Shown here piece after piece: positions 6,673 to 62,670 of a DNA stretch of 64,000 nucleotides; positions within the stretch are counted from its first letter, which is position 1; each line of letters begins with the position of its first letter. The notes under the pieces were generated by a model. That model saw only the letters and a program-made list of their open reading frames with translations, did no database searches and had not been told where the DNA came from. Source of the stretch: Ostreococcus lucimarinus (taxonomy: Eukaryota); assembly GCA_000092065.1 (NCBI GenBank), contig CP000581.1. One strand, written 5' to 3'. Position numbers and translations under genes: made by a program.

Positions 6673-8637
6673 CTACCAAGCGTCGACAAAATATCGACCA
6701 GTCGTTTCTAATTTAGTCATGTATCGTGCGCTTGCGTCCTCGTCGAGCAATCCTTGCTCGCGCACGACCTCCTGGATCGCTTTGTGCACGGCCGCGGGCA
6801 TCTTTTCTGCCGATCCAGCTACGAAGACTTTCGCTCCAGCCTCGAGCAAGGACCATATACGTTTCGCTTCATCCTTGACGCAATCTTGCACGTATCGCTT
6901 CTTCGCCTCTGGCACCATGCGAGAAAACGCGACGACAACACCTCCGAGTGAATCGCCGCCAGAACCAATTAAAGAGCCATCTTTTTCAATTTGTTTCCAC
7001 TCTTCCTTATATAAATAATCGTGCCGTGCGTGACGGCATCCAAACACGACCAATGCGCTTGCCGTGGAGGATTGCAGCACGCGTGCTCGAACAAAGGATC
7101 GAAATGGTGCGATACCAGTGCCCGGACCGATGAGAATCAATGGGGTCTCGGGTGGTGGTAAACTGATGCTTCCTTTGGTGATAGAGTATTTCACGCGCGT
7201 GCCAACGTCCAAAGAGTTCAGCCAGGAAGAACATAATCCTTTCCGCGCCCGTTTCATCGGTGTCACCCATTCCGCAGCGGCAACGGTGATGTGCGTCGCC
7301 GCCGTCCGCTCAGTATCCGCTGGAGAAGACGATATGGAATAATATCGCGGATGCAAGTGAGGAGCTACTTGCAAAAGCCACGCCAGTGACGGTTTTAACG
7401 ACGGAAAATCGTCGAATATTTCACACACCGTCCTTCGCTCGCGCTGATTGTACTTGTACAAATCCACAGCGCCCTCTGCCGAGGCAAAGTACTGAAGACG
7501 CTCCTTTTCGTGTTCGCTTTCGGCAAAATGACTCATGACCTCAAAAAAGTAACGTCTTGGGGATGCAGAATCCACATCGATCGCACCTGCGAGTAAGTAC
7601 TTGACCTGAATCAACGGGAACAATGCAGCCTTCGTCTCGGGCGCCGACGAAGGATAAACGCGCACCCAAGCATCCGGAGACATGCCCAGACGCTCAATCA
7701 GAGCCGAGACTTTGGCGTCGGCGGCACGCGTTGCGAAAGGTATCACGCCTAACACATCACCTGCTTCGTAGTGCGCGATCGAGGCGTCTAAGGTTTGAAA
7801 TTCTAGGTGACGAACCTCCTTGACGGCGTCGTCACTCGTCAAACATCTATTCTCACTCACGAATCCATCGTAATACGTTGTGTCGCGCGATTCGCGAGCT
7901 TCGTACTCAGCTTTTGAGAATGAAGTGCTAGCGTCGCTCGCATCAGCCGCCGCGAGCGCGAGTCGCAACGCCGTGTGTGCCTCCATCAGGCGTTCTCCGC
8001 TCGCCTCGACAATGCCCTCTGCGCAGGCAACCTCTTCCACGACGAATCTACAAGCGGGTAACGGCGCACTCGAGAGCTCGGCCTCGGTGAGGTCTTTCAA
8101 GTGCGGTGGCAACGGAAATATCTCGCGCATAGATTTCCACAACTCTCTCAACCACGGATTCAACGCCGCCTCGTACCCAAGTGGGTGCTGGTCATCTCCC
8201 AACCCAAGCGCTTCAATCGCGTTTGCCCCGAGCCCTTGCAGGCGCCGAAAAAGTTTTTTAGCGGTGACGTTATATTTTTGATATCCCGAATCGCCCAACC
8301 CGAACACGGCGTAGGACATGTTCGTCAGAGACGTCGCGGACAAACTCCGCCGCAGCAAAAATCTCCAAAAGCTCTTCATGTTCCTCGGTTCGTCACCCTG
8401 TCCTGTGGTGGACGTGACAAACACCACGCACCGCTCGCGAGGTAACGTTCGCACGTCATATCCCTCCATGGTCATGAGCACGGGGGCGTAATGCTTGAGC
8501 TTGGCCTCTCTCACGACGCGCTCCGCGACGTCTTGCGCGTTCCCAGTCTCCGAACCGTAGAGCACGAGCACGCGACGAGCGGGCGATGCGCCCGACGCGT
8601 CCGATGCGCCCGATGCGCCCGCGCCTGCGCTCACCAT
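6673..8637 (-). CDS. NDOR1: NADPH-dependent diflavin oxidoreductase 1 (NDOR1/Tah18/ATR3-like; flavodoxin + FAD/NADPH domains)
   Basis: VLVLYGSETGNAQDVAERV, VFVTSTTGQGDEPRNMKSFWRFLL, YAVFGLGDSGYQKYN, RYYSISSS, GLCSSWL, GPGTGIAPFRSF; ATG at 8637 verified. Confidence 0.85.
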   Translation of the reverse strand: MVSAGAGASGASDASGASPARRVLVLYGSETGNAQDVAERVVREAKLKHYAPVLMTMEGYDVRTLPRERCVVFVTSTTGQGDEPRNMKSFWRFLLRRSLSATSLTNMSYAVFGLGDSGYQKYNVTAKKLFRRLQGLGANAIEALGLGDDQHPLGYEAALNPWLRELWKSMREIFPLPPHLKDLTEAELSSAPLPACRFVVEEVACAEGIVEASGERLMEAHTALRLALAAADASDASTSFSKAEYEARESRDTTYYDGFVSENRCLTSDDAVKEVRHLEFQTLDASIAHYEAGDVLGVIPFATRAADAKVSALIERLGMSPDAWVRVYPSSAPETKAALFPLIQVKYLLAGAIDVDSASPRRYFFEVMSHFAESEHEKERLQYFASAEGAVDLYKYNQRERRTVCEIFDDFPSLKPSLAWLLQVAPHLHPRYYSISSSPADTERTAATHITVAAAEWVTPMKRARKGLCSSWLNSLDVGTRVKYSITKGSISLPPPETPLILIGPGTGIAPFRSFVRARVLQSSTASALVVFGCRHARHDYLYKEEWKQIEKDGSLIGSGGDSLGGVVVAFSRMVPEAKKRYVQDCVKDEAKRIWSLLEAGAKVFVAGSAEKMPAAVHKAIQEVVREQGLLDEDASARYMTKLETTGRYFVDAW

Positions 8638-8782
8638 CGCGATCGAGTGACGCGCACCGACCTAGTTTGCGCCGCGCGATGGCGACCCAAAATGCGGCTG
8701 CAGGCCGCTGGTGCGGCCGCCCACGAAACGCCAGTGCGCGGCGGTCGTGGGCGCCGGTGCACCGTCGAAGCGCGGTCCAACC

Positions 8783-9256
8783 ATGGCGACCGCTAGAGAC
8801 GATGGTCGTTTCAATCCCAGTCCTGCGCTCGCGCGCGACGTCGAGGCGTCGGGCGCGCGATATCCACCGGTTAAAGTTCGCGCGGCCTCGCTGGGAACCG
8901 TCAAGGCGCGCGCGCTGCATCACCAAGCCACGGAAGAAATGGTGCGAGATTTGTTAAAGTACGACGAAGTGCCGGGAATAACGAACATGTCGCACGTCGC
9001 TTTGCCCCCGGGCACCGTTATCGATCGTCACGTCCATCCGAGCAAGTACGAGGTATTCTTCGTGCAAAGCGGACGAGGTGCGTTCAAGGTGTGGAGACGC
9101 AAAGCGAGCGAAGCGGAAGAGGCGCGAGAAGAAATTGACCTCAGACCTGGTGTGAGCGTATACGTTGGACCGGAAGAACCTCACGAGATTATCCCGCATG
9201 GTGAGGACGAGCCGTTGATGATGTTGTACTTTGGCGTCGTAGCGCCAGAACCTTGA
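8783..9256 (+). CDS. cupin-domain (RmlC-like) small protein
   Basis: HVHPSKYEVFFVQSGRGAF...PGVSVYVGPEEPHEI (cupin_2 motifs); ATG at 8783 in Kozak-like ccATGG context, divergent from NDOR1 start. Confidence 0.6.
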   Translation: MATARDDGRFNPSPALARDVEASGARYPPVKVRAASLGTVKARALHHQATEEMVRDLLKYDEVPGITNMSHVALPPGTVIDRHVHPSKYEVFFVQSGRGAFKVWRRKASEAEEAREEIDLRPGVSVYVGPEEPHEIIPHGEDEPLMMLYFGVVAPEP

Positions 9257-9347
9257 GGTCGCCGGCGTTTCTCTCGCGTCGCGGCGATGCTGTCCGTATT
9301 ATTATTAGTTGTTGTAAACGATGAAGGAAGTAGGAACTCATATTGAG

Positions 9348-11639
9348 CTAGTGAAACGATTTCGACTGTACGGCGAACGTGTGCTGTACTTGCGCGATTG
9401 GTATCGCATCGGATGTTTTATTGTCTCCAAGTGCTGCCTTGAGAGACGACAGTCCCTCAACCACATGTGCTTCAAGTTCTCGCCAAGTTCGTAACACGAG
9501 CTCGTGGACAATCAAATCTTTCATCAAGGTTTTTGCACAAGCTTCGACACTCTTTTCAACGCCCCGAACGTTCGGAATGGCGATCTTATACAGCTTGAGT
9601 AGGTGTGCGCGGCGGTCGCCGGCAGGCTGAAACGTTCCCACACTCGAGCCCGAGCGCAAAGCGTGGATCTCCCCGAAGAGCTTTCCAAAATGCTTTTCGC
9701 AAACCTCCGCGACGTAAGTTGAGCTCGCTAAAGTCATGAATCCGTCCAATTGCGCCGCTAGTCCGGCAGAAACGTCGCCTTCATTCTCACCTCTTTCGAA
9801 ACACCGAGCAAGTGAAAAATAGCCTTGAAGTCTTACTCTGTCATGTCTGAGTGAAGTCGTGAGTTTCGATTCGAGTAAAAGTAGAGATGAGGCATAAAAT
9901 TACCTCTTGGATACCGCACTCGCTGTATGTTCTATGTGCGTGCACGCTACATCACACATCGACAGAAAACAAGCATCAGCTGAGTGTTCACCATTTGCCG
10001 CAAACACGTTTTGAAGCTGCATATGAGCTGAAATAATTTTTCTCAACGGATCGAGCTCTGGCATGCGAAACTCATATTCTCCACCCGAATTGCGCGTCGA
10101 TGATTGCTTCGAGCGAAGCGCACTCAGCTCTCGAGCGAATTCCTGCGCAGCGCTGTTGATGTGCGCTTCTACGACGACCTGTAATTAAATCAAATAAATA
10201 AATCAAATCGAGCGCAGAGAAAACAATGCGATGACGCACCTGAAAGTTATTGACGCTTTCAGTCAACGCATATTGACCTAGAGCGTGCGTCGATGCAGAA
10301 GTATCAATCAAAGCCGCCAGAAACGCCACGCAAAGTGCGCTATTGGTCGCAATCGATTGTTCAATTAAATCGAGCAAACATCCCTCCAATCCTGTAATTA
10401 TTTCCTGATGATAGAATTCGCGATTATTCGACGCGATTCGGAATGTCGTGCCGAGAAACGTTTCCACCGTATTTCCCACAGTCTCCATGGCTGCAATCGC
10501 TGTCCTTAGCGCTTGAAACGCGACCTGCGAATTAATTATTTAATTTCATCCAACATCGTTCATTGAAATCGAGAAGAACTCACGTTTATGGCATCTGCTT
10601 CAGTATCTTGTTTGTCGATCGCGTCCATAATCATCACTATATCGCATCGCATCACTTCAACGCAGCTTTGGCAATATAGACGCGCGAAAGCATCCGCGGT
10701 TGTTGGACTTAATTCGGACAAAGCGTCAAATAATCTCTCGAATTTCTTTAAGTCGCTGCGTTTGTGAGCGATAGATGTGAGATTCGTGACAATATTTATT
10801 TCTGTCATGCACCGTACCTTTGTATTGCTTCCCACGTGTTCGCGTCGCTCATCGCTTTTTTTTGCGTCGACCATCGCACCCATCCCTGCAAGAAATATTA
10901 ATAAATTAATTCCAACGAGCAACACGATACACACCTCTGCGATCGCTCGCAAGCGCTCAAATACACGCTCAAACGCGTGCATGGCTATTACTTCTACTTG
11001 TTCGCGCGCTTCGACGGTGACTCGCATCGTCGCAATCCCTGCTGGTAAACCATCCCTACGTGAGACCGAGTTAGTTTCGGCGTGTAAAGTCGAAACGTCG
11101 CGCACAGCGTACCTCAGCTTTCTTTTGAAGTCCAACAGCCGACGCAGTGCGTCGTAGATGGTCAAAATGCCTCGTTCATCATCGAGTGAATGCTCGCGGA
11201 CTGCACGCTCGACACCAACAGGTAACTCTAACTCCCCAAGCAAGCCCCGCACGGCAGCTGCGAGCGCTCGCTTGTTCTCGTTGGAGACGTCTCGCTTGTC
11301 GTCTCTGCCTTTGATAATCTCGATGTTCCTACGCATATTAACCAGTTTTGTTTCAAACACCGTGGACCACGCGTTCACGTCCTCCATCGAGCGTTCGACT
11401 TCGGATACGTACGCGGACAACGAAGCCATGACGCTTCCCGATGACTCCAACGCGTCAGAGAGAGCGCGGTCGGCGTCTTCAAGCTCGAGCTTTAGGATCC
11501 TATCCAAGCTCGAGATCCCTTCCGTCGTCGCATGACGAGTGCTTTCGAACAGCTCGCCGATCACTCGCTCCTCTTCCTCCTTCAACACGCGCGTGGACGT
11601 GCTCGACACCTCTTCCGTCGTCGTCCCCGCGAGCCGCAT
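9348..11639 (-). CDS. multi-exon gene (>=4-5 short introns) encoding a ~650-aa helical protein, possibly a vesicle-tethering (exocyst/CATCHR-like) subunit; identity uncertain
   Basis: track ORFs 10560..11996, 10072..10488, 9348..9749 on the minus strand are linked by short AT-rich introns with GT..AG ends (e.g. 10525..10583 GTGAGT..CAG; 10179..10239 GTGCGT..CAG); ATG at 11639 (MRLAGTTTEEV). Confidence 0.6.
10179..10239 (-). other. spliceosomal intron (61 nt, GTGCGT...ATTACAG), AT-rich
   Basis: canonical donor/acceptor flanked by coding frames of the same gene. Confidence 0.6.
10525..10583 (-). other. spliceosomal intron (59 nt, GTGAGT...TTCGCAG), AT-rich
   Basis: canonical donor/acceptor; interrupts otherwise continuous coding frames; contains the stop that ends track ORF 10560..11996. 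Confidence 0.6.
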
Positions 11640-32570: not shown

Positions 32571-34670
32571 CTAAACGTTTTCTAGGTCTCCAAGAACTCT
32601 ACGGCTCGACTGGCTCGTTTGCCTGTTGACGAGCCTGTCGACGAGCGTGCGCGTGGAGTCAGCCGTGGAGGTTCCCATGGAGGTGATGGACTGCGACGCC
32701 TCGGTACTGCCCGCGGCTAAATCAGAAAGCACCGCGGCGACTTTATCCGGGAAGTGATCGGCGAAGAATCCGTACTGAATCATCATCCCACGGTCCATGA
32801 GTTCGTGGGCTTCCACGAGGCGCGGGGCGTATGAACCATTGGGAAGCCGGAGCAAGTGAATGAGTTGTCCCGGAGGATGCAACGGCGCCGCCATCATGGG
32901 TGTCGAGTCGACTTGCGCCCGTGAGAACGTTCTGAAATCCTCGCGAAGCGCTGTAGACTCACTCGCCGCACTTTCTGGGTCAAGAACGTCAGAAATTTGC
33001 AACTTGGTGCCGTTGAACGTCATTCGCATCATCAAAGAAAACTTGTTCAGCTTTGCGTTGGTCAGCGAGTCCATCATGTCGCTACGGAGCTTCAACAACA
33101 CTGGTCCCGATAGTCGACAGAATAAATCACAGTGATGCACCGTGCTATACGTCCAAGCCTTAGTGATATTGCTTAACTTTGGACTCAACACGCCTCCAGG
33201 AGGTTCGATGCACCACACTTTCAAGTTGGGAAACTTTTTGCGAAGATGCAAGGACAACGCGGCGGCGACGCCCGCGCCCAAGGAGTGCCCAGTTAAGACC
33301 AAGTCCCAGTCGTGACAATCGACGGCGCTGCTCGGAAGCGGCGCACTCTCTGCGGACGGCTGCTCTCCTAAAATTGTCTGTTCTAAAATTCGATTCGCGT
33401 TCAAGTCCGAGAGAATAAAATTGGTCGCTCGAAAAACGCCCGAGTGCACGTGAAGATCAGAACCTTGAAGTCCTGGCTCATGTATGGCATCGGCGTTTAA
33501 CATGCACGGCTTATACATGCTATCCGTGACACAGTCTGCGATGCTCAATGTACCCCGTACCGAGAGCACCACCGCCTTGCGACGAACGTCTCGAGCAATA
33601 AAATATGGCGGTTCACCAATGCCGTTCGCCATCGACACGTAAAACAAATCATCCGACGCAATCCCCGCGCACTTTTTCAACGCTTCACGGTTCAAATCGT
33701 GCGGATCGCGATGGTCCTGCGATTTCCTCAAGCATTTTCGACAACCGCAACAACTCATGCATGCCTCGGACGAACACGCCATTCCGATGCCGGAACGCGG
33801 ATCCGCCCAAGCGAACAGCGCCCATCCGTACGCTGCGAGCGCCCATCGAGAATAATGTGCTGCATCCTCGTACATCGCGTTGAGAGACTTGTACGGCGCG
33901 AGCGCGTCCGAATCTGTTGCGAGCGGCTTACCCAACGGCTCGTTCTCGATCATGTGTCTATGCTGAATCGCGAGCAAGCCCATGCCTGCGGCGATGTCGC
34001 TCGGAACCACATCTGCGCCCTGAAAAACCTCCGCGAAACAATTTGCTACGTGACCTAACGTCCCTTGCTCCGCTAACTGCCTGTCCACTTCGGGATCCTC
34101 CGTTCTCTCTCGACGTCTGATGCACAAAACCGTCGCGATGATGTTGAAAATCTTGTACCACTTTTGATCGCTCGGTAAGTGTCCAAACATGCTAAACATC
34201 AGCATAATTCCACAGAAATGCACGCCGATGACGATGAAATTCCCAATGATGATGCTCAACACCATTCCCCGCACGCGTGCGCGATCCATGCACGCCGATA
34301 ACTCCGCATCCACAACAGTACCCAAAATTGTAAACGCAATGTCCACGGACAACAGGAACAAGTGCGCGTACAAGAAGTATGGCACCAAACGTCTCTTCTC
34401 CGGTTCTAAGATTCTCCCTCGCAGGGAGAGATGAAGCAGGATCGCCTCTACGCACAGCGCGACGAAATAACACGAGAACGTCGCGTAAAACCATGCCATC
34501 GCGTGTTCCCCGCCCGCGCAGTTTTGTCGCAACGTCCTGTGCGCGCGCTCGTACACCACCAATATGATCACGCACCACAGCGTGTGCACCGTCATCAATC
34601 CCGCCATGGGCAGCGGCAAATCATCGCTCGACAACAGCCAGTGGCGTCCGAACAAGCGAATGGCCGGCAT
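32571..34670 (-). CDS. sn1-specific diacylglycerol lipase-like protein (lipase class 3 catalytic domain preceded by multi-pass TM region)
   Basis: DLVLTGHSLGAGVAAALSLHLRKKFPNLKVWCIEPPGG (GHSLG nucleophile elbow), N-terminal hydrophobic helices; first 119 codons of track ORF (Arg-rich) trimmed; ATG ~34670. Confidence 0.7.
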   Translation of the reverse strand: MPAIRLFGRHWLLSSDDLPLPMAGLMTVHTLWCVIILVVYERAHRTLRQNCAGGEHAMAWFYATFSCYFVALCVEAILLHLSLRGRILEPEKRRLVPYFLYAHLFLLSVDIAFTILGTVVDAELSACMDRARVRGMVLSIIIGNFIVIGVHFCGIMLMFSMFGHLPSDQKWYKIFNIIATVLCIRRRERTEDPEVDRQLAEQGTLGHVANCFAEVFQGADVVPSDIAAGMGLLAIQHRHMIENEPLGKPLATDSDALAPYKSLNAMYEDAAHYSRWALAAYGWALFAWADPRSGIGMACSSEACMSCCGCRKCLRKSQDHRDPHDLNREALKKCAGIASDDLFYVSMANGIGEPPYFIARDVRRKAVVLSVRGTLSIADCVTDSMYKPCMLNADAIHEPGLQGSDLHVHSGVFRATNFILSDLNANRILEQTILGEQPSAESAPLPSSAVDCHDWDLVLTGHSLGAGVAAALSLHLRKKFPNLKVWCIEPPGGVLSPKLSNITKAWTYSTVHHCDLFCRLSGPVLLKLRSDMMDSLTNAKLNKFSLMMRMTFNGTKLQISDVLDPESAASESTALREDFRTFSRAQVDSTPMMAAPLHPPGQLIHLLRLPNGSYAPRLVEAHELMDRGMMIQYGFFADHFPDKVAAVLSDLAAGSTEASQSITSMGTSTADSTRTLVDRLVNRQTSQSSRRVLGDLENV

Positions 34671-35488
34671 ACCGCGCGCGCGCGATCTTCCCGCGTCGCT
34701 CCCGCGCAGGCGTCTCTCGGACCGTGTGATTCGCGCGTCGCTCGCGCCTCTCGCCTCTCGCCTCGCGCGCGCGTCTCGGCGCCTCGCGCGGCGCGACGAA
34801 CGCCCGCGCCTTCGTTCGCGCGCCGCGCTCGATCGCCGCGCTCGATCGCCGCGTTCGATCGACGACGCGCGCGTCGATTTGCCGCGCAACACCATTGTTG
34901 GTCCAGAGCAAAAAGAGCGAAATTCGACCGACCGGCGTGTCGGGAAAGACGACGGCGCGCGGCAGAAGACGCCGCCACCATGGTCGCGCGCGGTGCGACG
35001 GTGTGCGTGGGAGCGCGGTGTGGACACGCCTCTTGGCGTGCGCGCGAGAGACGAACGACGAGGTGCGCGCGACTACGACACGAAACGACGAGACGACGAC
35101 GCGCGTGCTGAATTTGAAATTTCAATCGGCGCGCGAGGCTGCGCGACGATGACGCGTTCGGGTTCGCGATCGAGCGGTCGTGGGACGAGACAGGGCGCGA
35201 AAGACTGACGCAGATGCGGTGCCGTGCGGTGATGCCGACCTTAGGCGTGTCGATCGTGGTGGGTGGCTCGACGGCGACGCGAGACTATCGACGCGAGGCG
35301 GACGCGTCGACGCTTCGGTGGCGGAGGGCGAGACGACGTGGCGAGGGGATTCGGGAAGTGATGCGGACGATGGAACGAGCGTGCAGGATGGTAGGGAATG
35401 GTACACGTTTAAGCACGGAGAGAACGTGCGGTGGTTGGTGGAACAGAGTGGGTTAGACTGGGCCACTCTGGAGCAACTGAATCCAGAC

Positions 35489-38400
35489 ATGGATTTGACG
35501 ACGACGTTTCCGGGAGATAGAATTGTTATCCGTGGACCACCGAGTTTAAAGCCGAACGATCGTGTGGTTGCAGCAGTGGTGGCACAACCGACGTCTTCCG
35601 TCGTGGTGACGCCAAGATTATCGACGTGGAGCTCACCCGTCGCATTAGCGGGTGTGCTCATCGTGGGTATCGTCACCGGCGCAGCTTTCGCGGGGAAAAG
35701 GCGGCTATCCACGGTCATCATGGCGCTCACGGGGAACGCGGACCCACAACTCGAGGCAAAAGACAACGAAATTGACGCTCTCAGAGCCCACCTGGATGTC
35801 GCGGAACGTGATCTCACGGACATGCGAGAGAAGTGGCTGAGGAACGAACAGTCGCTGGAAAACTTGCAACAGCTCCTGGAAAGTGCGTCGCGAGCCGACG
35901 CATCTTTGAGAGACCAAATCAGCGTGCTGAAAGAGTCCCTAGACTCAAGAAATAACGATGTCAAACGTCTCGAAAGCTCGAACGCTGAAGCCAATGAGCT
36001 TGCGGAGCAGTACAAAACCAAGCTTAAGAACGCTCAAGGTGAAGTTGACGCGCTGCGGGAAACTGAGAGAAACAGTGCGTCTCAACTTGCCCAAGTCACG
36101 CAGATGACAACGCAGTACGAAGGCGATATTTTGAGTTATAAAAGTAAATTATTGGACATCGAGGCGGAGCTGATGGCTCTCAGAGAGCTCAACGACGGTT
36201 ATTCTGATGAAGCAAATACCTCAAAAGAAAAGTACAAAGAGACACTGAGCGAAATTGCCAAAGTGACAGAGTTGAATGACAAGCTCGAGGCAGAGCTTTC
36301 AAAAACGAACGAACAGGTGATAAATCATCTAAACCAGCTAGCCATTCATAAGCACGACATGGAAAAGCTGGAATTAGAACTCGCGGCTTCTCGCAACGAT
36401 CTGTCAGAGTTGACGGTTGATTTTGAAAGCGCGAATACAAAATTGAGTTCACTTACGTCTGAACTGGAAGATAGCCGATCAGAGGCACTCGCATACTCGA
36501 ATGAGCTTCAAACTGTGAAAACCGACCTCGAGATTTCGATGGACGAACTCGAAACACTCAGAAAAAGTCTTAAAGCTTCGCAAGATCACGTTTCAGAATA
36601 TGAGATCAATCTCTCGGGTTACAAAACAAAGCTCGAAATGGTTCAATCGTCGCTTGAGATATCTCGTAATGAAGCCACAAGCTATCATGATGATCTTACT
36701 TTAAATAAACGTGAACTTGAGGAGGTGCGCGATGGACTTGAGCAGATAACGAGCGAGCTACGAGCTTCAAAGACTGAAAATTCCAGCTTATCTGATGAAC
36801 TCGACTGCTTAAAAAGCGAGCTTGAAATGCTTCAATCACAACTTGCTACTGCGAATGACGAGTCCTCAACACTCTCGATCGATCTTGCAGGGATTAAAAG
36901 TAAGCTCGAAATGGCTGAAAAAGCTCTGGAAGAGTCTCGCAATCAGGCATCTGGGTATAAGGGCGAGCTGGAAGTAGCACGTAATGAGGCTGTACAATTG
37001 TCTAGCGAGCTCATGGGCTTGAAAGTTAAGGTAGACGAGTTGGAGGTAGCGCTCAATGAAACCAGCGGAGAGTCGTCGACTCTTTCCATCGACCTCGCTG
37101 GTTTCAAGAGCAAGCTAGCAATGGTCGAGGAAGCTCTCGAGCAAGCGCGCACGCAGTCCTCTGAGTATGAAGGCGAGCTCGCTCGCGCTCGCGAGGCGCT
37201 CGAGAATGAGGCAAACGAGAAGAGATCCATGGAAGAGAAGTTTTCGAAGATGTGCGAGGAGCTATCTCAGCAGGGCATGCAAGCGTCGGAGGAAGGGGGA
37301 CGCCTAGAGCGCGAGCTCGCTTACACTCGCGAGGCGCTCGAGAATGAGGCAAACGAGAAGAGATCCATGGAGGAGAAGTTTTCAAAGACGTGCGAAGAGT
37401 TATCTCAGCAGGGCATGCAGGCGTCGCAGGAAGTTGATCGCCTGCAAGGTGAGTTGCAAAAGTCTAGAACCGCACTTGATAAAGCTAACGGCGAATCTTC
37501 ACTTCTTTCCATTGACCTCGCTGGTTTCAAGAGCAAGCTAGCAATGGTCGAGGAAGCTCTCGAGCAAGCGCGCATGCAGTCCTCTGAGTATGAAGGCGAG
37601 CTCGCTCGCGCTCGCGAGGCGCTCGAGAATGAGGCAAACGAGAAGAGATCCATGGAAGAGAAGTTTTCGAAGATGTGCGAGGAGCTATCTCAGCAGGGCA
37701 TGCAAGCGTCGGAGGAAGTTGATCGCCTGCAAGGTGAGTTGCAGGCGGCGCAAGCGGCGCTCGATAGCGCGTCGGGCGAGTCGTCGACTCTTTCCATCGA
37801 CCTCACTGGTTTCAAGAGCAAGCTAGCAATGGTCGAGGAAGCTCTCGAGCAAGCGCGCACGCAGTCCTCTGAGTATGAAGGCGAGCTCGCTCGCGCTCGC
37901 GAGGCGCTCGAGAATGAGGCAAACGAGAAGAGATCCATGGAAGAGAAGTTTTCGAAGATGTGCGAGGAGCTATCTCAGCAGGGCATGCAAGCGTCGGAGG
38001 AAGGGGGACGCCTAGAGCGCGAGCTCGCTCGCGCTCGCGAGGCGCTCGAGAATGAGGCAAACGAGAAGAGATCCATGGAAGAGAAGTTTTCGAAGATGTG
38101 CGAGGAGCTATCTCAGCAGGGCATGCAAGCGTCGGAGGAAGTTGATCGCCTGCAAGGTGAGTTGCAGGCGGCGCAAGCGGCGCTCGATAGCGCGGTGCGG
38201 GATTCAACGGAGATTCGCATTTCTGCTGATGGCTACAAGATGAATCTTGAAGCAGCGCAATGCGAGCTTGATGCGTTACGATCGCAAAGCGGTGACACGT
38301 CATCAGACCTTACAGAATATAAGAACAAGGTTGAATCATTGCAGTCCGAGCTTTTGTCTGCCCGTGAGGACTCTATGAAAACAGCAGAGGCTTTATCGCG

Positions 38401-39805
38401 AGAACAAATCAAATTTCAAGGCATGGAGGAAAAGTTGGCAAATATCGTAGCATCGAGCGGGGCAGACAACGTTGAGATTGAAACTTATAAATCACGGCTT
38501 GCGAGCAGTGAATTAGAACTCGAAACTCTTAGGGTGAAAGCAGCGGTAAATGCTGAAGAAGCAGAAAAGTATCAAGTAAATCTCATCGACGCCCGTGAGG
38601 AAGTTGCAAGATTAGCCGATGAAATTGGCGAGTGGAAGAGCAAAGCAGATTCTCTCGAACACCAACTCGGTCAAGTTCAGATGGAGCACCCCGACAAAGA
38701 TGAAGATGCAGAAAAAAATCGTCAGCTTGAGGACGAGTTAGAACTCTTAAAAGAAAAAGTCTCAGCGTCATCGGCTGAAATAGAGTCATACATGGGTAAG
38801 TTGGAGCACGCGGAATCTGAACTTTCAGTGATGCGAGCTGAGATTGAAGGAGGAAAACACGAAAGATCCGAACAAAACCAGGAAGTGATCGCGCGCATGC
38901 AAATTGAAGTTAGTGCAGCAAATGAGCGAGCTGATCGCTATAAGCAGCGTTTGCTTGAGCTCGAGGAAAATATGCAGCTCAAGTTAGAATCCCTTGAGTC
39001 GATTGCTGAATTTTCTGAAACAGAGGAAGTGCGATTGCTGCAGGAACAAATTTCGAGGCTTGAGTCAGAAAACGCCGAGGCGAACTCAATGCTGAAAAAC
39101 ATGGAACAGGATATAGCGAAAATGCGTGTCTCTTCTATCGAGCCTTCTCAGTCTCCAATGTGGCTGATCGAGGAAGAGCGGCGTGACATGGAATTATCTA
39201 TGCTTGAAGCGAGACAAGCAGCACAGCTCTCATTGGCACAAGTGTCGCAGGCGGTAACCAAAATGAGACAACAAGCGCGAGGCGAGCTGGTTTCGCATGC
39301 CATCTCTTGCGAGTTCAAAGTACGCAAAGATGTTGGCGAACATCAATTCCTTTGTTTGGTAGGAAGTTGGCACGAGTGGGATGTACAGACAGCTGATTAC
39401 ATGCAGCGCGGCGCTGATGGTACCTGGCAAGTTGCCATCACGCTCTTTGCAGATGAGGCGTACGAATATAAATACTGTGTTTGCGAGGTAAATGAGCACG
39501 GTCAGCGTGTTCCAATAGAGTGGCAAGTAGGCCACAATCACGGCTTTGCCTTCGATTCAAATCTAATCGTCAATCAGAACATGAAGGCCAAGGCGCAGAT
39601 CCGAGATAAATTTCTCGCGGATCCAGCGCATACCCCAATAATCTTATTTGGGCCAAATGGTGAAAAGTTTGAGACGGGTAGTACGGCGCTGCTCCACAAC
39701 TTCTCGAATCACATCGCTGAAAGTGGATTTGAGAATTTGCGAACGAGTCTTGAGCGTTTAAATGCCATCCTCGCGAAGTCACAGCGTAAAAATCTTGAGG
39801 CGTAG
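35489..39805 (+). CDS. giant coiled-coil protein (>=1440 aa) with internal near-identical tandem repeats and C-terminal CBM20-like starch-binding module; an in-frame upstream extension (35180..35488, no ATG) would add a LysM-like segment before a single hydrophobic helix
   Basis: continuous 4.6-kb ORF, AT-richer than neighbours; heptad-rich E/K/L/S sequence; CBM20-like FKVRKDVGEHQFLCLVGSWHEWDVQTADYMQRGADGTWQVAITLFADEAYEYKYCVCEVNEHGQRVPIEWQVGHNHGF; hydrophobic segment VALAGVLIVGIVTGAAFAG; start codon uncertain (alternatives ATG 35726 or 35828). Confidence 0.65.
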   Translation: MDLTTTFPGDRIVIRGPPSLKPNDRVVAAVVAQPTSSVVVTPRLSTWSSPVALAGVLIVGIVTGAAFAGKRRLSTVIMALTGNADPQLEAKDNEIDALRAHLDVAERDLTDMREKWLRNEQSLENLQQLLESASRADASLRDQISVLKESLDSRNNDVKRLESSNAEANELAEQYKTKLKNAQGEVDALRETERNSASQLAQVTQMTTQYEGDILSYKSKLLDIEAELMALRELNDGYSDEANTSKEKYKETLSEIAKVTELNDKLEAELSKTNEQVINHLNQLAIHKHDMEKLELELAASRNDLSELTVDFESANTKLSSLTSELEDSRSEALAYSNELQTVKTDLEISMDELETLRKSLKASQDHVSEYEINLSGYKTKLEMVQSSLEISRNEATSYHDDLTLNKRELEEVRDGLEQITSELRASKTENSSLSDELDCLKSELEMLQSQLATANDESSTLSIDLAGIKSKLEMAEKALEESRNQASGYKGELEVARNEAVQLSSELMGLKVKVDELEVALNETSGESSTLSIDLAGFKSKLAMVEEALEQARTQSSEYEGELARAREALENEANEKRSMEEKFSKMCEELSQQGMQASEEGGRLERELAYTREALENEANEKRSMEEKFSKTCEELSQQGMQASQEVDRLQGELQKSRTALDKANGESSLLSIDLAGFKSKLAMVEEALEQARMQSSEYEGELARAREALENEANEKRSMEEKFSKMCEELSQQGMQASEEVDRLQGELQAAQAALDSASGESSTLSIDLTGFKSKLAMVEEALEQARTQSSEYEGELARAREALENEANEKRSMEEKFSKMCEELSQQGMQASEEGGRLERELARAREALENEANEKRSMEEKFSKMCEELSQQGMQASEEVDRLQGELQAAQAALDSAVRDSTEIRISADGYKMNLEAAQCELDALRSQSGDTSSDLTEYKNKVESLQSELLSAREDSMKTAEALSREQIKFQGMEEKLANIVASSGADNVEIETYKSRLASSELELETLRVKAAVNAEEAEKYQVNLIDAREEVARLADEIGEWKSKADSLEHQLGQVQMEHPDKDEDAEKNRQLEDELELLKEKVSASSAEIESYMGKLEHAESELSVMRAEIEGGKHERSEQNQEVIARMQIEVSAANERADRYKQRLLELEENMQLKLESLESIAEFSETEEVRLLQEQISRLESENAEANSMLKNMEQDIAKMRVSSIEPSQSPMWLIEEERRDMELSMLEARQAAQLSLAQVSQAVTKMRQQARGELVSHAISCEFKVRKDVGEHQFLCLVGSWHEWDVQTADYMQRGADGTWQVAITLFADEAYEYKYCVCEVNEHGQRVPIEWQVGHNHGFAFDSNLIVNQNMKAKAQIRDKFLADPAHTPIILFGPNGEKFETGSTALLHNFSNHIAESGFENLRTSLERLNAILAKSQRKNLEA
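37060..38210. repeat. in-frame tandem repeat array: ~3 copies of a ~288-nt (96-aa) unit, two of which carry an extra nested 126-nt (42-aa) duplication; copies near-identical at DNA level; older diverged ~70-aa units extend upstream to ~36400
   Basis: repeated peptide ESSTLSIDLAGFKSKLAMVEEALEQARTQSSEYEGELARAREALENEANEKRSMEEKFSKMCEELSQQGMQASEEVDRLQGELQAAQAALDSA; identical spurious antisense ORF peptides (37104..37385, 37405..37653, 37690..37938, 37812..38303) prove nucleotide-level identity. Confidence 0.85.
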
Positions 39806-40152
39806 ATCAGTAGCAAAATGTTGGGGCGAGATTCCTTCAGGCATAGATTCCTTCAGGCTTAGACACGAAGTAGTTCTTCCTTAACAAATTCAATTTCAAA
39901 ACAAACTATAAATTTTATTTACTGAGCGGCTGCACATGTACTAAGTAATGTCGTTTAATATTCTCCTGGCGATGCGACGAGTATCCCACCTTGCGTCAAG
40001 TCTGCCCATTTCAAACACTTCACTGCACGGCGTGTCGCTACGCTTGCGGCGCGCGCGCTACGACTCTGAATTGACGCAACGTCCAGGTCGCACGCATTAG
40101 CCGAACGCGCTCCACGCGTCGTCGTGCACAGTCAAATACGCTCGACGGCGAG

Positions 40153-41322
40153 ATGATCGACGCCGCGGTGGGTGTTGGCGGCAACGTTGTCGAGTCCGAG
40201 GCTCTGTTGGAGCCTGCGAGTGGGTCGGGACGCGATCGTCGTCTCGCACGCAAAGCATTACAATGGTCCGGCGCGATGCTGACGTTTGCGTCGTTCATCG
40301 CGCTCGGCGTCGTTGCAAAGCGGCGCTGGGTTGGCGTTGAGCGCGCGAGCGCGGCGGCGTTGGGAGACACGCCTGGAACAGTGCGCGTGGAATCGTTCGA
40401 CACCGCGGCTTGTCAGTGGCGTCTTGATCGTGCGCTTGACGAGAATATTCGGTGTAATCCGGCTGGCACAGACGTCGTGGTAGTGCCCAAACTCAAAGCG
40501 GTGTACGTGGATGTGACGAAGGCGGCGAGTGAAAGTATACGAAGTCGTCTATTAGATGTCTACAACTCAAGCTGGACAAATGAAGAATACGCCATGGACG
40601 AAGGGAACAACATCGTTCGTTCGACTACTTCTTCGTTGTCGGATGAATTGTTGGATTCATACAAATTCTTCACGTTTGTACGAAATCCAAGTGAGCGTTT
40701 CGTCTCTGGCTATCAGCAGGCTTTCTGTCGCTCTTTGTGTCAGGGATGCATGCATGGAAAGACACCCACCCGGCCTCCGACGATTGAGCAGACGATCGAT
40801 TTGATAGAAATCATGCGCGGTAGGGCGAAGCATGACGACAGCTTTTGCTCGAATCGTCTGGGGGCGCCGCAAGACCAGAGCTTTTTGAACAATCCTTGGT
40901 TGGATGAGCACTTACAATCAACCGTATCGAGGCTCAGTGGTGTAACTCGACGTGGCTCGCGCGTACCAATGCACTTTATAGGTCGAACTGAGTCGTTGGA
41001 CGAAGATTGGAACCGTCTTATGGATGAGCTCGGCGTCGAACCAAGTCACCCTGTTCGTGCTCCGCTCAAGCACGTCGAGCACGAGTGCGCGATCTCCGAG
41101 CGCGAAAGACATTTGAAAGCCCAACGTGACGTATTCTTCTCTCACATAGTCCGTGGTGAACGAGCTCCAGAATCAGGCGAGCTTTATGAACCAGTGGAAG
41201 TCATTTACTCACGCGACAGAGCCGAGGTACACATCCCGAAGCCGAGTACCGCAAACGGTGGTGCGTACTTTGATAGATTCAAAACGCTCTACGAGGACGA
41301 TTACCGATGCCTCGATTATTAG
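40153..41322 (+). CDS. carbohydrate sulfotransferase-like type-II membrane protein (Sulfotransfer_2 family)
   Basis: N-terminal signal-anchor (MLTFASFIALGVVA), FTFVRNPSERFVSGY (3'-PAPS-binding motif of CHST family), downstream HFIGRTESLDEDW; ATG 40153. Confidence 0.6.
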   Translation: MIDAAVGVGGNVVESEALLEPASGSGRDRRLARKALQWSGAMLTFASFIALGVVAKRRWVGVERASAAALGDTPGTVRVESFDTAACQWRLDRALDENIRCNPAGTDVVVVPKLKAVYVDVTKAASESIRSRLLDVYNSSWTNEEYAMDEGNNIVRSTTSSLSDELLDSYKFFTFVRNPSERFVSGYQQAFCRSLCQGCMHGKTPTRPPTIEQTIDLIEIMRGRAKHDDSFCSNRLGAPQDQSFLNNPWLDEHLQSTVSRLSGVTRRGSRVPMHFIGRTESLDEDWNRLMDELGVEPSHPVRAPLKHVEHECAISERERHLKAQRDVFFSHIVRGERAPESGELYEPVEVIYSRDRAEVHIPKPSTANGGAYFDRFKTLYEDDYRCLDY

Positions 41323-61841: not shown

Positions 61842-62289
61842 CCCGCCCGTCCCGGTCGCGCGCGCGTCGTCCCCCTCCTCTTCCCTCGCCTTCCTTCACG
61901 CCGCGCGCGTCCCGCGCCTCGCCTCCGATCCACCCGCGCGCGTCCCGCGCCTCCGCTAAGCGCGCGCCCCGCGCGTTTCAAACGGATGCGCGCACGAATC
62001 GATTCACGCGGAGCGTCCCCGACGCGCCTGGCGCGCGCGCGCGTCGTCTCGATCCGTCGCCCGCGTCGTCGCGGTTTGCGGCGTCGCGCGCGCGTCGTCT
62101 CGATCCGTCGCGCGCGTCGGTCGTCGTCGGTCGTCGTCGGATGTCGGACGTCGTCGGATGTCGGATCCGTCGTCGGCCGGCGTCGAGTGGCGTCGCGCGA
62201 TCGACGCGATATCGGCGCGTCGCGCGACCGACGCGATATCGGCGCGACGGCGCGGGACGGGACCGGCGACGCGATATCGGATATCGGCG

Positions 62290-62670
62290 CGGCGCGGCGC
62301 GGTCGCGCGCATGGGTGTACGTGTATCGTAAATACGCCTAAAGCGGCCGTATTCGAACGCATCGATGCGGGATCGCGCGTCCACGATCGATCGCGGTCGC
62401 GTCGCGCGCGCGGGCGCGCATGCATTGATTATGGGTGTACGTGTATCGTAAATACGCGACCGCGGCCGTATTCGAACGCATCGATGCGGGATCGCGGATC
62501 CCGGATAGATCGCGGGCGCGTCGCGCGCGCGGTCGCGCATGCGTCGATTATGGGTTTACGTGTATCGTAAATACGCGACCGCGGCCGTATTCGAACGCAT
62601 CGATGCGCGATCGCGCGTCCACGATGGAGCGCGGGCGCGTCGCGCGCGCGGTCGCGCATGCATCGATTCG
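62290..62670. repeat. intergenic minisatellite: ~3.2 tandem copies of a ~120-bp unit, palindrome-rich (CGCATCGATGCG, TTCGAA, TACG..CGTA)
   Basis: unit starts (ATGGGTGTACGTGTATCGTAAATACGC...) at 62311, 62431, 62550 (period 119-120); copies >90% identical. Confidence 0.85.

Follow-up and report, generated by a model that had tools for sequence, protein, structure and literature searches.

Tandem repeats that lie in frame within genes, known as coding minisatellites or variable number tandem repeats (VNTRs), are familiar from the FLO and other adhesin genes of yeast and from the M proteins of streptococci, where copy number varies between strains, copies undergo conversion and assemblies collapse. 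Among proteins that hold glucan at a membrane is STBD1, which is anchored at its N-terminus and carries at its C-terminus the CBM20 domain that tethers the glucan. In Chlamydomonas, the rod of SAGA1 has been proposed to bridge from starch to another structure over tens of nanometres (PMC6744930). In Arabidopsis, proteins that act in the initiation of starch granules and position them are PTST2/3 (coiled coil plus CBM48), MFP1 (membrane anchor plus coiled coil) and MRC/PII1 (Seung et al. 2018, cited in PMC6744930). Here we analyze a stretch of 64,000 nucleotides (nt) of Ostreococcus lucimarinus DNA (GenBank assembly GCA_000092065.1, contig CP000581.1; hereafter the window), in which a gene for a membrane-anchored coiled-coil protein contains a nested tandem array. 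It is very probable that the array represents a true coding minisatellite within the protein's rod. Literature searches turned up no account of either the protein or its repeat.

Structure of the tandem array

Parsing the translation into modules places the in-frame tandem array at 37067-38197 on the plus strand (1131 nt), inside the coiled-coil gene. Four kinds of module recur, A (123 nt, 41 amino acids (aa)), B (105 nt, 35 aa), L (33 nt, 11 aa) and C (57 nt, 19 aa), and they are arranged in the order A1 B1 L1 B2 C1 / A2 B1 C2 / A3 B1 L2 B1 C3. The basic unit, A-B-C, is 285 nt long (95 aa), and nested within units 1 and 3 is an internal duplication of B+L that measures 138 nt (46 aa). The units are:

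37067..37489 (+), 423 nt: unit 1, A1 B1 L1 B2 C1, with the internal 138-nt duplication at 37190-37327 / 37328-37465
37490..37774 (+), 285 nt: unit 2, A2 B1 C2, the basic 95-aa unit with no internal duplication
37775..38197 (+), 423 nt: unit 3, A3 B1 L2 B1 C3, with the internal 138-nt duplication at 37898-38035 / 38036-38173

A preliminary description, made from the letters of the window, had reported a nested, in-frame array of three units, two of them internally duplicated, and in these respects it was right. Its measurements needed revision: the unit is 285 nt rather than 288 nt, the internal duplication is 138 nt rather than 126 nt, and the bounds, given as 37060-38210, mark the right region and are corrected to those above.

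The check that the preliminary description had proposed was carried out by running Tandem Repeats Finder (TRF) on 34000-41000 of the window. The copies are head to tail, with a 285-nt period at 37311-38003 (2.4 copies, 91% matches, no indels, score 1146) and a second, overlapping 138-nt row at 37169-38161 (7.1 copies). A repeat search recovered a 300-nt family starting at 37067, 37490, 37775 and 37913 with identity up to 98%, the value found between 37775-38074 and 37067-37366. At the nucleotide level, four of the five B modules (the B1 allele) are mutually identical over 105/105 nt (100%), and B2 matches this allele at 93.3%. A1 and A3 are 98.4% identical and A2 is 93.5% identical to either of them, while C2 and C3 are 96.5% identical and C1 is only 70% identical to either. 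The most diverged stretch within the array is B2-C1 of unit 1. The longest exact repeats measure 224, 176, 143 and 123 nt, which is far beyond chance.

We considered whether a deeper 46-aa periodicity runs through the whole array and rejected it. The alignment of C+A with B+L gave z = 2.4, and 12 of 500 shuffles reached its score. No such periodicity is claimed because matches of B to B drive the 138-nt row reported by TRF.

Copy number and haplotypes within the species

An exact look-up of two neighbouring genes returned approximately 950-1270 blocks of marine metagenome assemblies (Tara Oceans and the Joint Genome Institute (JGI) included), and a DNA pattern just 3' of the array returned five additional contigs. 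The gene flanks of the same-species loci are 99.6-100% identical to the window, and the array is different in almost every locus. Arrays have 1-4 units and 0-4 internal duplications, with lengths of 285, 570, 993, 1131, 1416, 1554 and 1692 nt. Altogether, eight array architectures occur on flanks that are 99.6-100% identical, or in sequence that otherwise matches the window at >99.6%. They include the following:

Window: ABLBC ABC ABLBC, 1131 nt
L015 (947-kb contig): ABLBC ABC ABC ABLBC, fully resolved, 1416 nt
L016: ABLBC ABC ABLBC ABLBC, 1554 nt
L013: ABLBC x 4, 1692 nt
L020: ABLBC ABC ABC, 993 nt
L018: ABC ABC, 570 nt
L012, L004, L017: ABC, 285 nt

For L006, a product length of 1590 aa implies 4 units and 1 internal duplication. 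The window and all ungapped alleles (L012, L013, L015-L018, L020) keep the open reading frame (ORF) unbroken. The copy-number polymorphism predicted at the outset is supported by this range of arrays, 285-1692 nt, on nearly invariant flanks, and by a 92-aa indel between two related proteins (P0012 and P0034, see below).

Based on single-nucleotide polymorphisms (SNPs), the alleles fall into two haplotype families that differ in unit counts. Family 1 (L015, L020, L018 and L017) carries G100C (E to Q) in all B copies (6/6, 4/4, 2/2 and 1/1, respectively), and its arrays end in C4. Family 2 consists of the window, L013, L016, L012 and L004, and its arrays end in C3; G100C is present in 1/5 B copies of the window, 0/8 of L013 and 0/7 of L016. 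The variants B3, B4 and B5 are mosaics of the variant sites of B1 and B2. The two SNP-defined families and these mosaics cannot be assembler noise.

The 947-kb contig (L015/L009) also has an extra 2.4 kb, at 7395-9792, between the coiled-coil and sulfotransferase genes when compared with 39806-40152 of the window. This segment encodes an isochorismatase/guanylate-cyclase-like protein of 770 aa. It is present in L001, L021 and L022 and is not in the window or most contigs. It is either a presence/absence polymorphism or a difference between sub-clades.

Concerted evolution, base composition and heptad register

We read as concerted evolution the finding that G100C occupies every B copy in one family but at most one copy per array in the other. 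Synonymous sites are identical in all four copies of the B1 allele. When the loci L001 and L002 of Bathycoccus-like relatives are compared, both B copies within a genome share lineage-specific synonymous changes. These three observations uphold the earlier suggestion of very recent expansion or ongoing concerted evolution.

The array also differs from its surroundings in guanine-plus-cytosine (GC) content at third codon positions (GC3), which is 0.67 in the array and 0.45-0.48 in the flanking rod. Within the array, the diverged copy C1 has a GC3 of 0.37, compared with 0.68 for C2 and C3. In the Bathycoccus-like homologue, the corresponding region (L001, aa 611-735) has a GC3 of 0.60 against 0.39-0.41. 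The pattern is consistent with GC-biased gene conversion, of which composition alone is no proof, and it suggests that conversion has been concentrated in this segment for a long time in the two genera.

The sizes of the repeats bear a simple relation to the heptad: 70 = 10 x 7, 95 = 14 x 7 - 3 and 46 = 7 x 7 - 3, so that the 285- and 138-nt units are of 7n+4 aa. A scan of heptad register found long unbroken heptad runs through A0 (an older copy, described below), A, L and C, and one stutter per B module. Because the units are multiples of 3 nt and of 7n+4 aa with one stutter, any number of them would leave the reading frame and the heptad register unchanged. This would explain why copy changes are tolerated.

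Older copies and antisense reading frames

Two older relatives of the A module lie upstream of the array:

36857..37066 (+): ancient 70-aa unit (10 heptads), consisting of A0 (36857-36979) and a 29-aa spacer, present in all orthologues
36593..36697 (+): diverged A-like motif SEYEINLSGYKTKLEMVQSSLEISRNEATSYHDDL, aa 472-506, from local alignment to A1 (score 76, z = 13, 500 shuffles)

A0 starts 70 aa ahead of A1 and shares 82/123 nt and 28/41 aa with it (z = 22 against shuffles). Both A0 and A are visible in the orthologues P0001, P0003 and P0093. Further A-like motifs at aa 319, 1018, 1046, 1102 and 1203 were weak (z of 0.7-5.3) and were rejected, which leaves A0 and the one at aa 472-506 as the sole convincing copies elsewhere in the rod. 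The older repeats of about 70 aa that had been reported upstream are thus real as regards these two copies, and the additional motifs of this type are only weakly supported.

The array also gives rise to ORFs on the opposite strand, all five of which are in the ORF list:

36943-37230 (-): antisense ORF, family 1
37405-37653 (-): antisense ORF, family 1
37690-37938 (-): antisense ORF, family 1
37104-37385 (-): antisense ORF, family 2
37812-38303 (-): antisense ORF, family 2

The members of family 1 have an identical 26-aa start in common, and those of family 2 a long C-terminal stretch. All lie wholly within the conserved sense ORF, and we judge them to be spurious by-products of the repeat. 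The preliminary description had counted four such frames with identical peptides. They exist and derive from the repeat, but there are five, in two families, and their peptides are only near-identical.

The host gene and its domains

From the N-terminus, the predicted layout of the protein runs from a probable LysM-like domain and a transmembrane helix through a coiled-coil rod of approximately 1100 aa to a CBM20 domain and a conserved C-terminal tail. The corresponding features are:

35180..39805 (+): coiled-coil gene, long ORF of 1541 aa from GTG (ORF list)
35149..35213 (+): candidate ATG start at 35149 with a candidate 52-nt GT..AG intron at 35162-35213 (inferred)
35399..35536 (+): probable LysM-like domain, aa 74-119 (profile search, low-confidence AlphaFold2 model)
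35636..35695 (+): predicted transmembrane helix PVALAGVLIVGIVTGAAFAG, 20 residues, aa 153-172, followed by KRR (read from sequence)
39305..39553 (+): CBM20 starch-binding-type domain, aa 1376-1458 (Pfam CBM_20, AlphaFold2, Foldseek)
39599..39694 (+): conserved C-terminal tail IRDKF.ADPAHTPIILFG.NGEK.ETGST.LL (columns invariant in 10 sequences)

The coiled-coil ORF has no in-frame ATG ahead of the LysM-like domain. The region 35149-35213 is identical in 9 other assemblies, and the missing ATG is therefore not a sequencing error. Positions 35162-35213 are a candidate tiny intron: excising these 52 nt would bring the ATG at 35149 into the main frame and give a protein that begins MTRSDAV..., comparable to MTNDAV in an orthologue, and there is a CTGAC near the 3' end of the putative intron.

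The segment of aa 74-119 is a probable LysM-like domain, as judged from profile comparisons. When a profile of six orthologues was compared with the sequences in PDB, eight of the nine matches, including the top six, were to LysM domains (in chitinase A, intimin and LysM receptor kinases), with a best E value of only 0.004. The Pfam LysM family (PF01476) had no match in the window fragment. It matched the orthologue P0093 with 12.7 bits (cut-off 20.9), covering profile positions 1-42 of 43. The AlphaFold2 model has a beta-alpha-alpha-beta topology in this region, where the predicted local distance difference test score (pLDDT) is only about 57-67. Over the whole N-terminal region the mean pLDDT of the model is 44.8, too low for a fold search. 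Based on the positive-inside rule, the KRR that follows the predicted helix would place the rod and the CBM20 domain on the cytoplasmic or stromal side.

Across the central protein, Pfam gives only families of the coiled-coil type (Filament, Fez1, WEMBL, Rod_CreS). The CBM20 assignment draws on several lines of evidence. Pfam CBM_20 (PF00686) scores 24.8 bits against the C-terminal fragment (gathering cut-off 23.3) and 21.4 bits, below the cut-off, against the whole protein; CBM_48 scores only 15.1 bits, under its own cut-off. AlphaFold2 models the C-terminal fragment as a beta-sandwich, with pLDDT of 73-90 over most of the sandwich, and the top Foldseek matches of this model are the CBM20 domains of glucoamylase, STBD1, GDE5, beta-amylase and CGTase (E from 1.9e-5, TMt 0.67-0.74). 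A motif of the W-x-x-G-x-N type (WQVGHNHGF) and conserved W and Y residues are visible in the alignment. No Pfam family matches the C-terminal tail at 39599-39694.

Relatives and synteny

A protein search found 94 homologues of 1047-1317 aa with the same domain layout. No Ostreococcus proteins were among the matches of this or of a second homology search; O. tauri, RCC809 and O. mediterraneus lay outside the comparison. Products of the same gene, with 1259, 1590, 1623 and 1728 aa, are nevertheless called on contigs in the searched collection, so that absence among the search matches is no evidence of absence. Most of the homologues (91 of 94) come from one species complex with about 49% GC and are 98-100% identical after the repeat units are collapsed. 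We infer that this complex is Bathycoccus.

The gene order around the locus is conserved. A divergent Lipase_3 gene lies upstream in all fetched loci, and downstream there is a guanylate cyclase gene, along with TIR and Sulfotransfer_2 genes where the contig is long enough. The downstream Sulfotransfer_2 gene was seen in L001 and L021 and the guanylate cyclase gene in L022. In other genera, which share this synteny, the orthologues of modules A, B and C are single-copy segments. All lineages sampled have A0 and a single A-B-C segment, and the duplication that gave A0 and A is therefore ancient. Multiplication of the 285-nt unit was found, among the lineages sampled, only in O. lucimarinus.

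The 46-aa B+L segment varies in copy number in the relatives as well, with one copy in 76 proteins, two in 16 and three in 1. The Bathycoccus-like proteins P0012 and P0034 are identical over 1114 aa save for an indel of 92 aa (2 x 46). One-copy (P0087) and two-copy (P0003) forms are both present among the genome assemblies of Bathycoccus-like species at NCBI.

Two further homologues, P0056 and P0062, exceed the others by 38 aa after collapse of B+L (1152 compared with 1114 aa from the WYTFK anchor), which points to another indel or repeat at some other place in the protein. Separately, locus L021 (52.6% GC) has independent in-frame rod repeats of 168 and 84 nt (56 and 28 aa, whole heptads) at 10338-11056. 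They are found at a different place, towards the C-terminal end of the rod, and the two youngest copies share 95% identity across 120 nt. No repeats are present in lineage L022.

Genomic surroundings

The window lies on chromosome 1 of O. lucimarinus CCE9901, and six neighbouring proteins match exactly (XP_001415517, XP_001415518, XP_001415521, XP_001415842 and XP_001415847 among them). Its genes are intron-poor and densely packed, and include those for condensin subunit 2, a PRP21-like splicing factor, UFL1, PIG-M and protein kinases. Scans of the 64-kb window for Rfam families and transfer RNAs (tRNAs) found nothing.

The only other sizeable tandem repeat in the window, at 62311-62668, consists of 3.0 copies of a 119-nt unit (90% matches) and is adjoined by a small 27-nt x 2.4 repeat at 62190-62254. 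Since 119 nt is not a multiple of 3, the larger repeat is probably non-coding. Between the divergent lipase and coiled-coil genes, 34600-35350, which includes both 5' ends, is 66-72% GC. Here (CTCGCGC)x7 occupies 34741-34789 and a 13-nt unit is repeated 3.2 times at 34821-34861; these simple repeats lead to long Arg-rich spurious ORF extensions on both strands.

Discussion

In the mechanism that we propose, an ancestral single A-B-C segment (95 aa), which is still single-copy in one related lineage, would have been multiplied head to tail in O. lucimarinus. The 46-aa sub-unit, made up of B and the 11-aa linker, would have been duplicated again inside A-B-C, giving the nested pattern. Unequal recombination or replication slippage between near-identical modules would then cause copies to be gained and lost, and gene conversion, together with these processes, would homogenise them. 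The population would then be expected to carry alleles whose rods differ in length by increments of about 6.8 nm for 46 aa and of about 14 nm for 95 aa. The outcomes of this turnover are in the data; the process itself we infer.

Several considerations weigh against parts of this account and of the functional reading that follows from it. Exact copy numbers are those given by the assemblies, for the window as for every metagenome contig. Because the exact repeats of 123-224 nt exceed the k-mers used for short reads, individual metagenome architectures are not to be trusted, and several of the alleles may be arbitrary traversals of an assembly graph. The exact window allele has no match on record in any other assembly. 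The rise in GC3 could in part reflect local codon or amino-acid usage and not biased conversion. The scan of heptad register is a home-made heuristic and not a calibrated predictor. As for function, that part of the account is deduction only, and the N-terminus predicted after splicing is acidic, which a typical transit peptide is not. A peptidoglycan pathway is lacking in Ostreococcus (PMC4815162), which weighs against peptidoglycan as the ligand of the LysM-like domain.

The architecture in the window, with its three units and two internal duplications, might be an assembly artefact and the diversity elsewhere assembler noise. The array does contain exact repeats of up to 224 nt, and because the same module junctions occur in all architectures a de Bruijn graph cannot tell these apart. 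Assembly collapse, which the preliminary description had anticipated, is indeed encountered: in three short-read contigs (L012, L004 and L017) the array is a single A-B-C unit made of the first A joined to the last C, which looks like a collapse, and four scaffolds (L008, L010, L011 and L014) have a 100-N gap within the array. Neither the architecture nor the exact protein of the window is reproduced by another assembly. However, the diverged stretch B2-C1-A2 (93%, 70% and 93.5% identical to its paralogues) occupies a central position, with 261 nt separating it from the unique 5' flank and 586 nt from the 3' one, so that single reads of Sanger length could anchor both halves of the window architecture. 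The haplotype families, with SNPs that run through all B copies together with SNPs in the flanks, go beyond what assembler noise would give, and the 947-kb contig has a four-unit array that is fully resolved. In addition, the one-copy and two-copy forms of the Bathycoccus-like species are found in NCBI assemblies. On balance, we regard an artefact as unlikely. Much less likely still, to the point of being hardly credible, is that the near-identity of the copies reflects purifying selection on an essential peptide motif in old duplicates. The B module is recognisable between the genera (REALENEANEKRSMEEKFSK.CEELSQQGMQAS compared with ARAALESELKEKESMEEKFSALCEDLSQQSMTAS) and the 46-aa period is the same in both, as such selection would have it. 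Yet selection at the level of the protein leaves synonymous sites free, and here four B copies agree at 105/105 nt, the copies within a genome have lineage-specific synonymous changes in common, and copy number varies on otherwise identical proteins.

The variation in length that goes with a genuine minisatellite might itself be under selection, with diversifying or balancing selection acting on the length of the rod and thereby on membrane-glucan spacing or a surface interaction. Many length classes occur together in natural populations, every change preserves the reading frame and the heptad register, other lineages have independent rod repeats, and lengths in the family range over 1047-1541 aa. 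For the long helical region of SAGA1, a Chlamydomonas protein with a CBM20 domain, a reach of about 30 nm across the gap between starch and matrix has been suggested (PMC6744930). Neutral instability of a minisatellite in a permissive rod accounts for the same data, however, and the allele calls are uncertain, and we consider functional selection on length rather improbable.

With regard to function, the CBM20 domain most plausibly binds starch or another alpha-glucan. By analogy, the protein as a whole would most plausibly be a tether or spacer between membrane and glucan, with the LysM-like ectodomain at the anchor and the CBM20 domain at the C-terminus; we favour this reading because an anchor, a long rod and a C-terminal CBM20 domain together resemble STBD1, SAGA1 and the Arabidopsis starch proteins. 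Coiled coils extend by 0.148 nm per residue. At this value, the array in the window has a length of about 56 nm and the rod about 170 nm. A role of the LysM-like domain in binding peptidoglycan at the plastid envelope was considered and rejected, as Ostreococcus and Bathycoccus keep only DDL and MURE (PMC4815162). A bolder proposal is that the protein is a molecular ruler specific to the Mamiellales, in which the LysM-like ectodomain, the transmembrane helix, the rod of about 170 nm and the CBM20 tip link a membrane to a starch granule, and in which many alleles, in steps of about 7 and 14 nm, are kept in natural O. lucimarinus populations because they tune the positioning or partitioning of granules. 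This we regard as speculative and improbable. If it were true, rod-length alleles would arise from register-neutral gain and loss of modules, in a cell only about 1 micrometre across.

The array is an assembly and annotation hazard in a widely used reference genome and in metagenomes that contain this abundant alga, where collapsed copies, gaps and wrong protein lengths are the consequence. It could also be used as a strain marker for O. lucimarinus populations that can be sized by polymerase chain reaction (PCR). As a natural example, it brings together nested repeat turnover, GC3 enrichment and concerted evolution, at the level of one species as well as between genera. Finally, it points to an uncharacterised, syntenic family of membrane-anchored CBM20 coiled-coil proteins, which are candidates for organising starch in the smallest free-living eukaryotes.

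Comparison with known systems

The protein in the window is like SAGA1 and SAGA2 of Chlamydomonas reinhardtii in combining a CBM20 domain with a helical rod of about 1000 residues, a likeness at the level of architecture (PMC6744930, PMC13167743). SAGA1 differs in that its CBM20 domain is N-terminal (aa 214-280) and in that it binds Rubisco, whereas in the window protein the CBM20 domain is C-terminal and is accompanied by a LysM-like domain and a transmembrane helix. To our knowledge, Ostreococcus has no pyrenoid. The CBM20 domain of human STBD1 (genethonin-1, PDB 8x8k) is among the best structural matches (E = 3.4e-5, TMt = 0.70). Unlike the window protein, STBD1 is short, acts on cytosolic glycogen and is without a coiled-coil rod, a LysM domain and a repeat array. 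The likeness to PTST2/3 and MFP1 is again one of architecture, a coiled coil joined to a starch-binding module or to a membrane anchor; the window protein, in contrast, unites anchor, rod and carbohydrate-binding module in one chain, and the module is CBM20 and not CBM48.

As an intragenic VNTR within a coiled-coil rod, the array itself belongs to a known kind of feature and overturns no existing ideas. Like the VNTRs of FLO genes and M proteins, it consists of in-frame units arranged head to tail, with high DNA identity that extends to synonymous sites, and its copies vary in number and are homogenised. It is unlike them in being nested, with 138 nt inside 285 nt, in having units of 7n+4 aa that preserve the heptad register, and in its location in a presumably intracellular coiled-coil tether of a picoalga.

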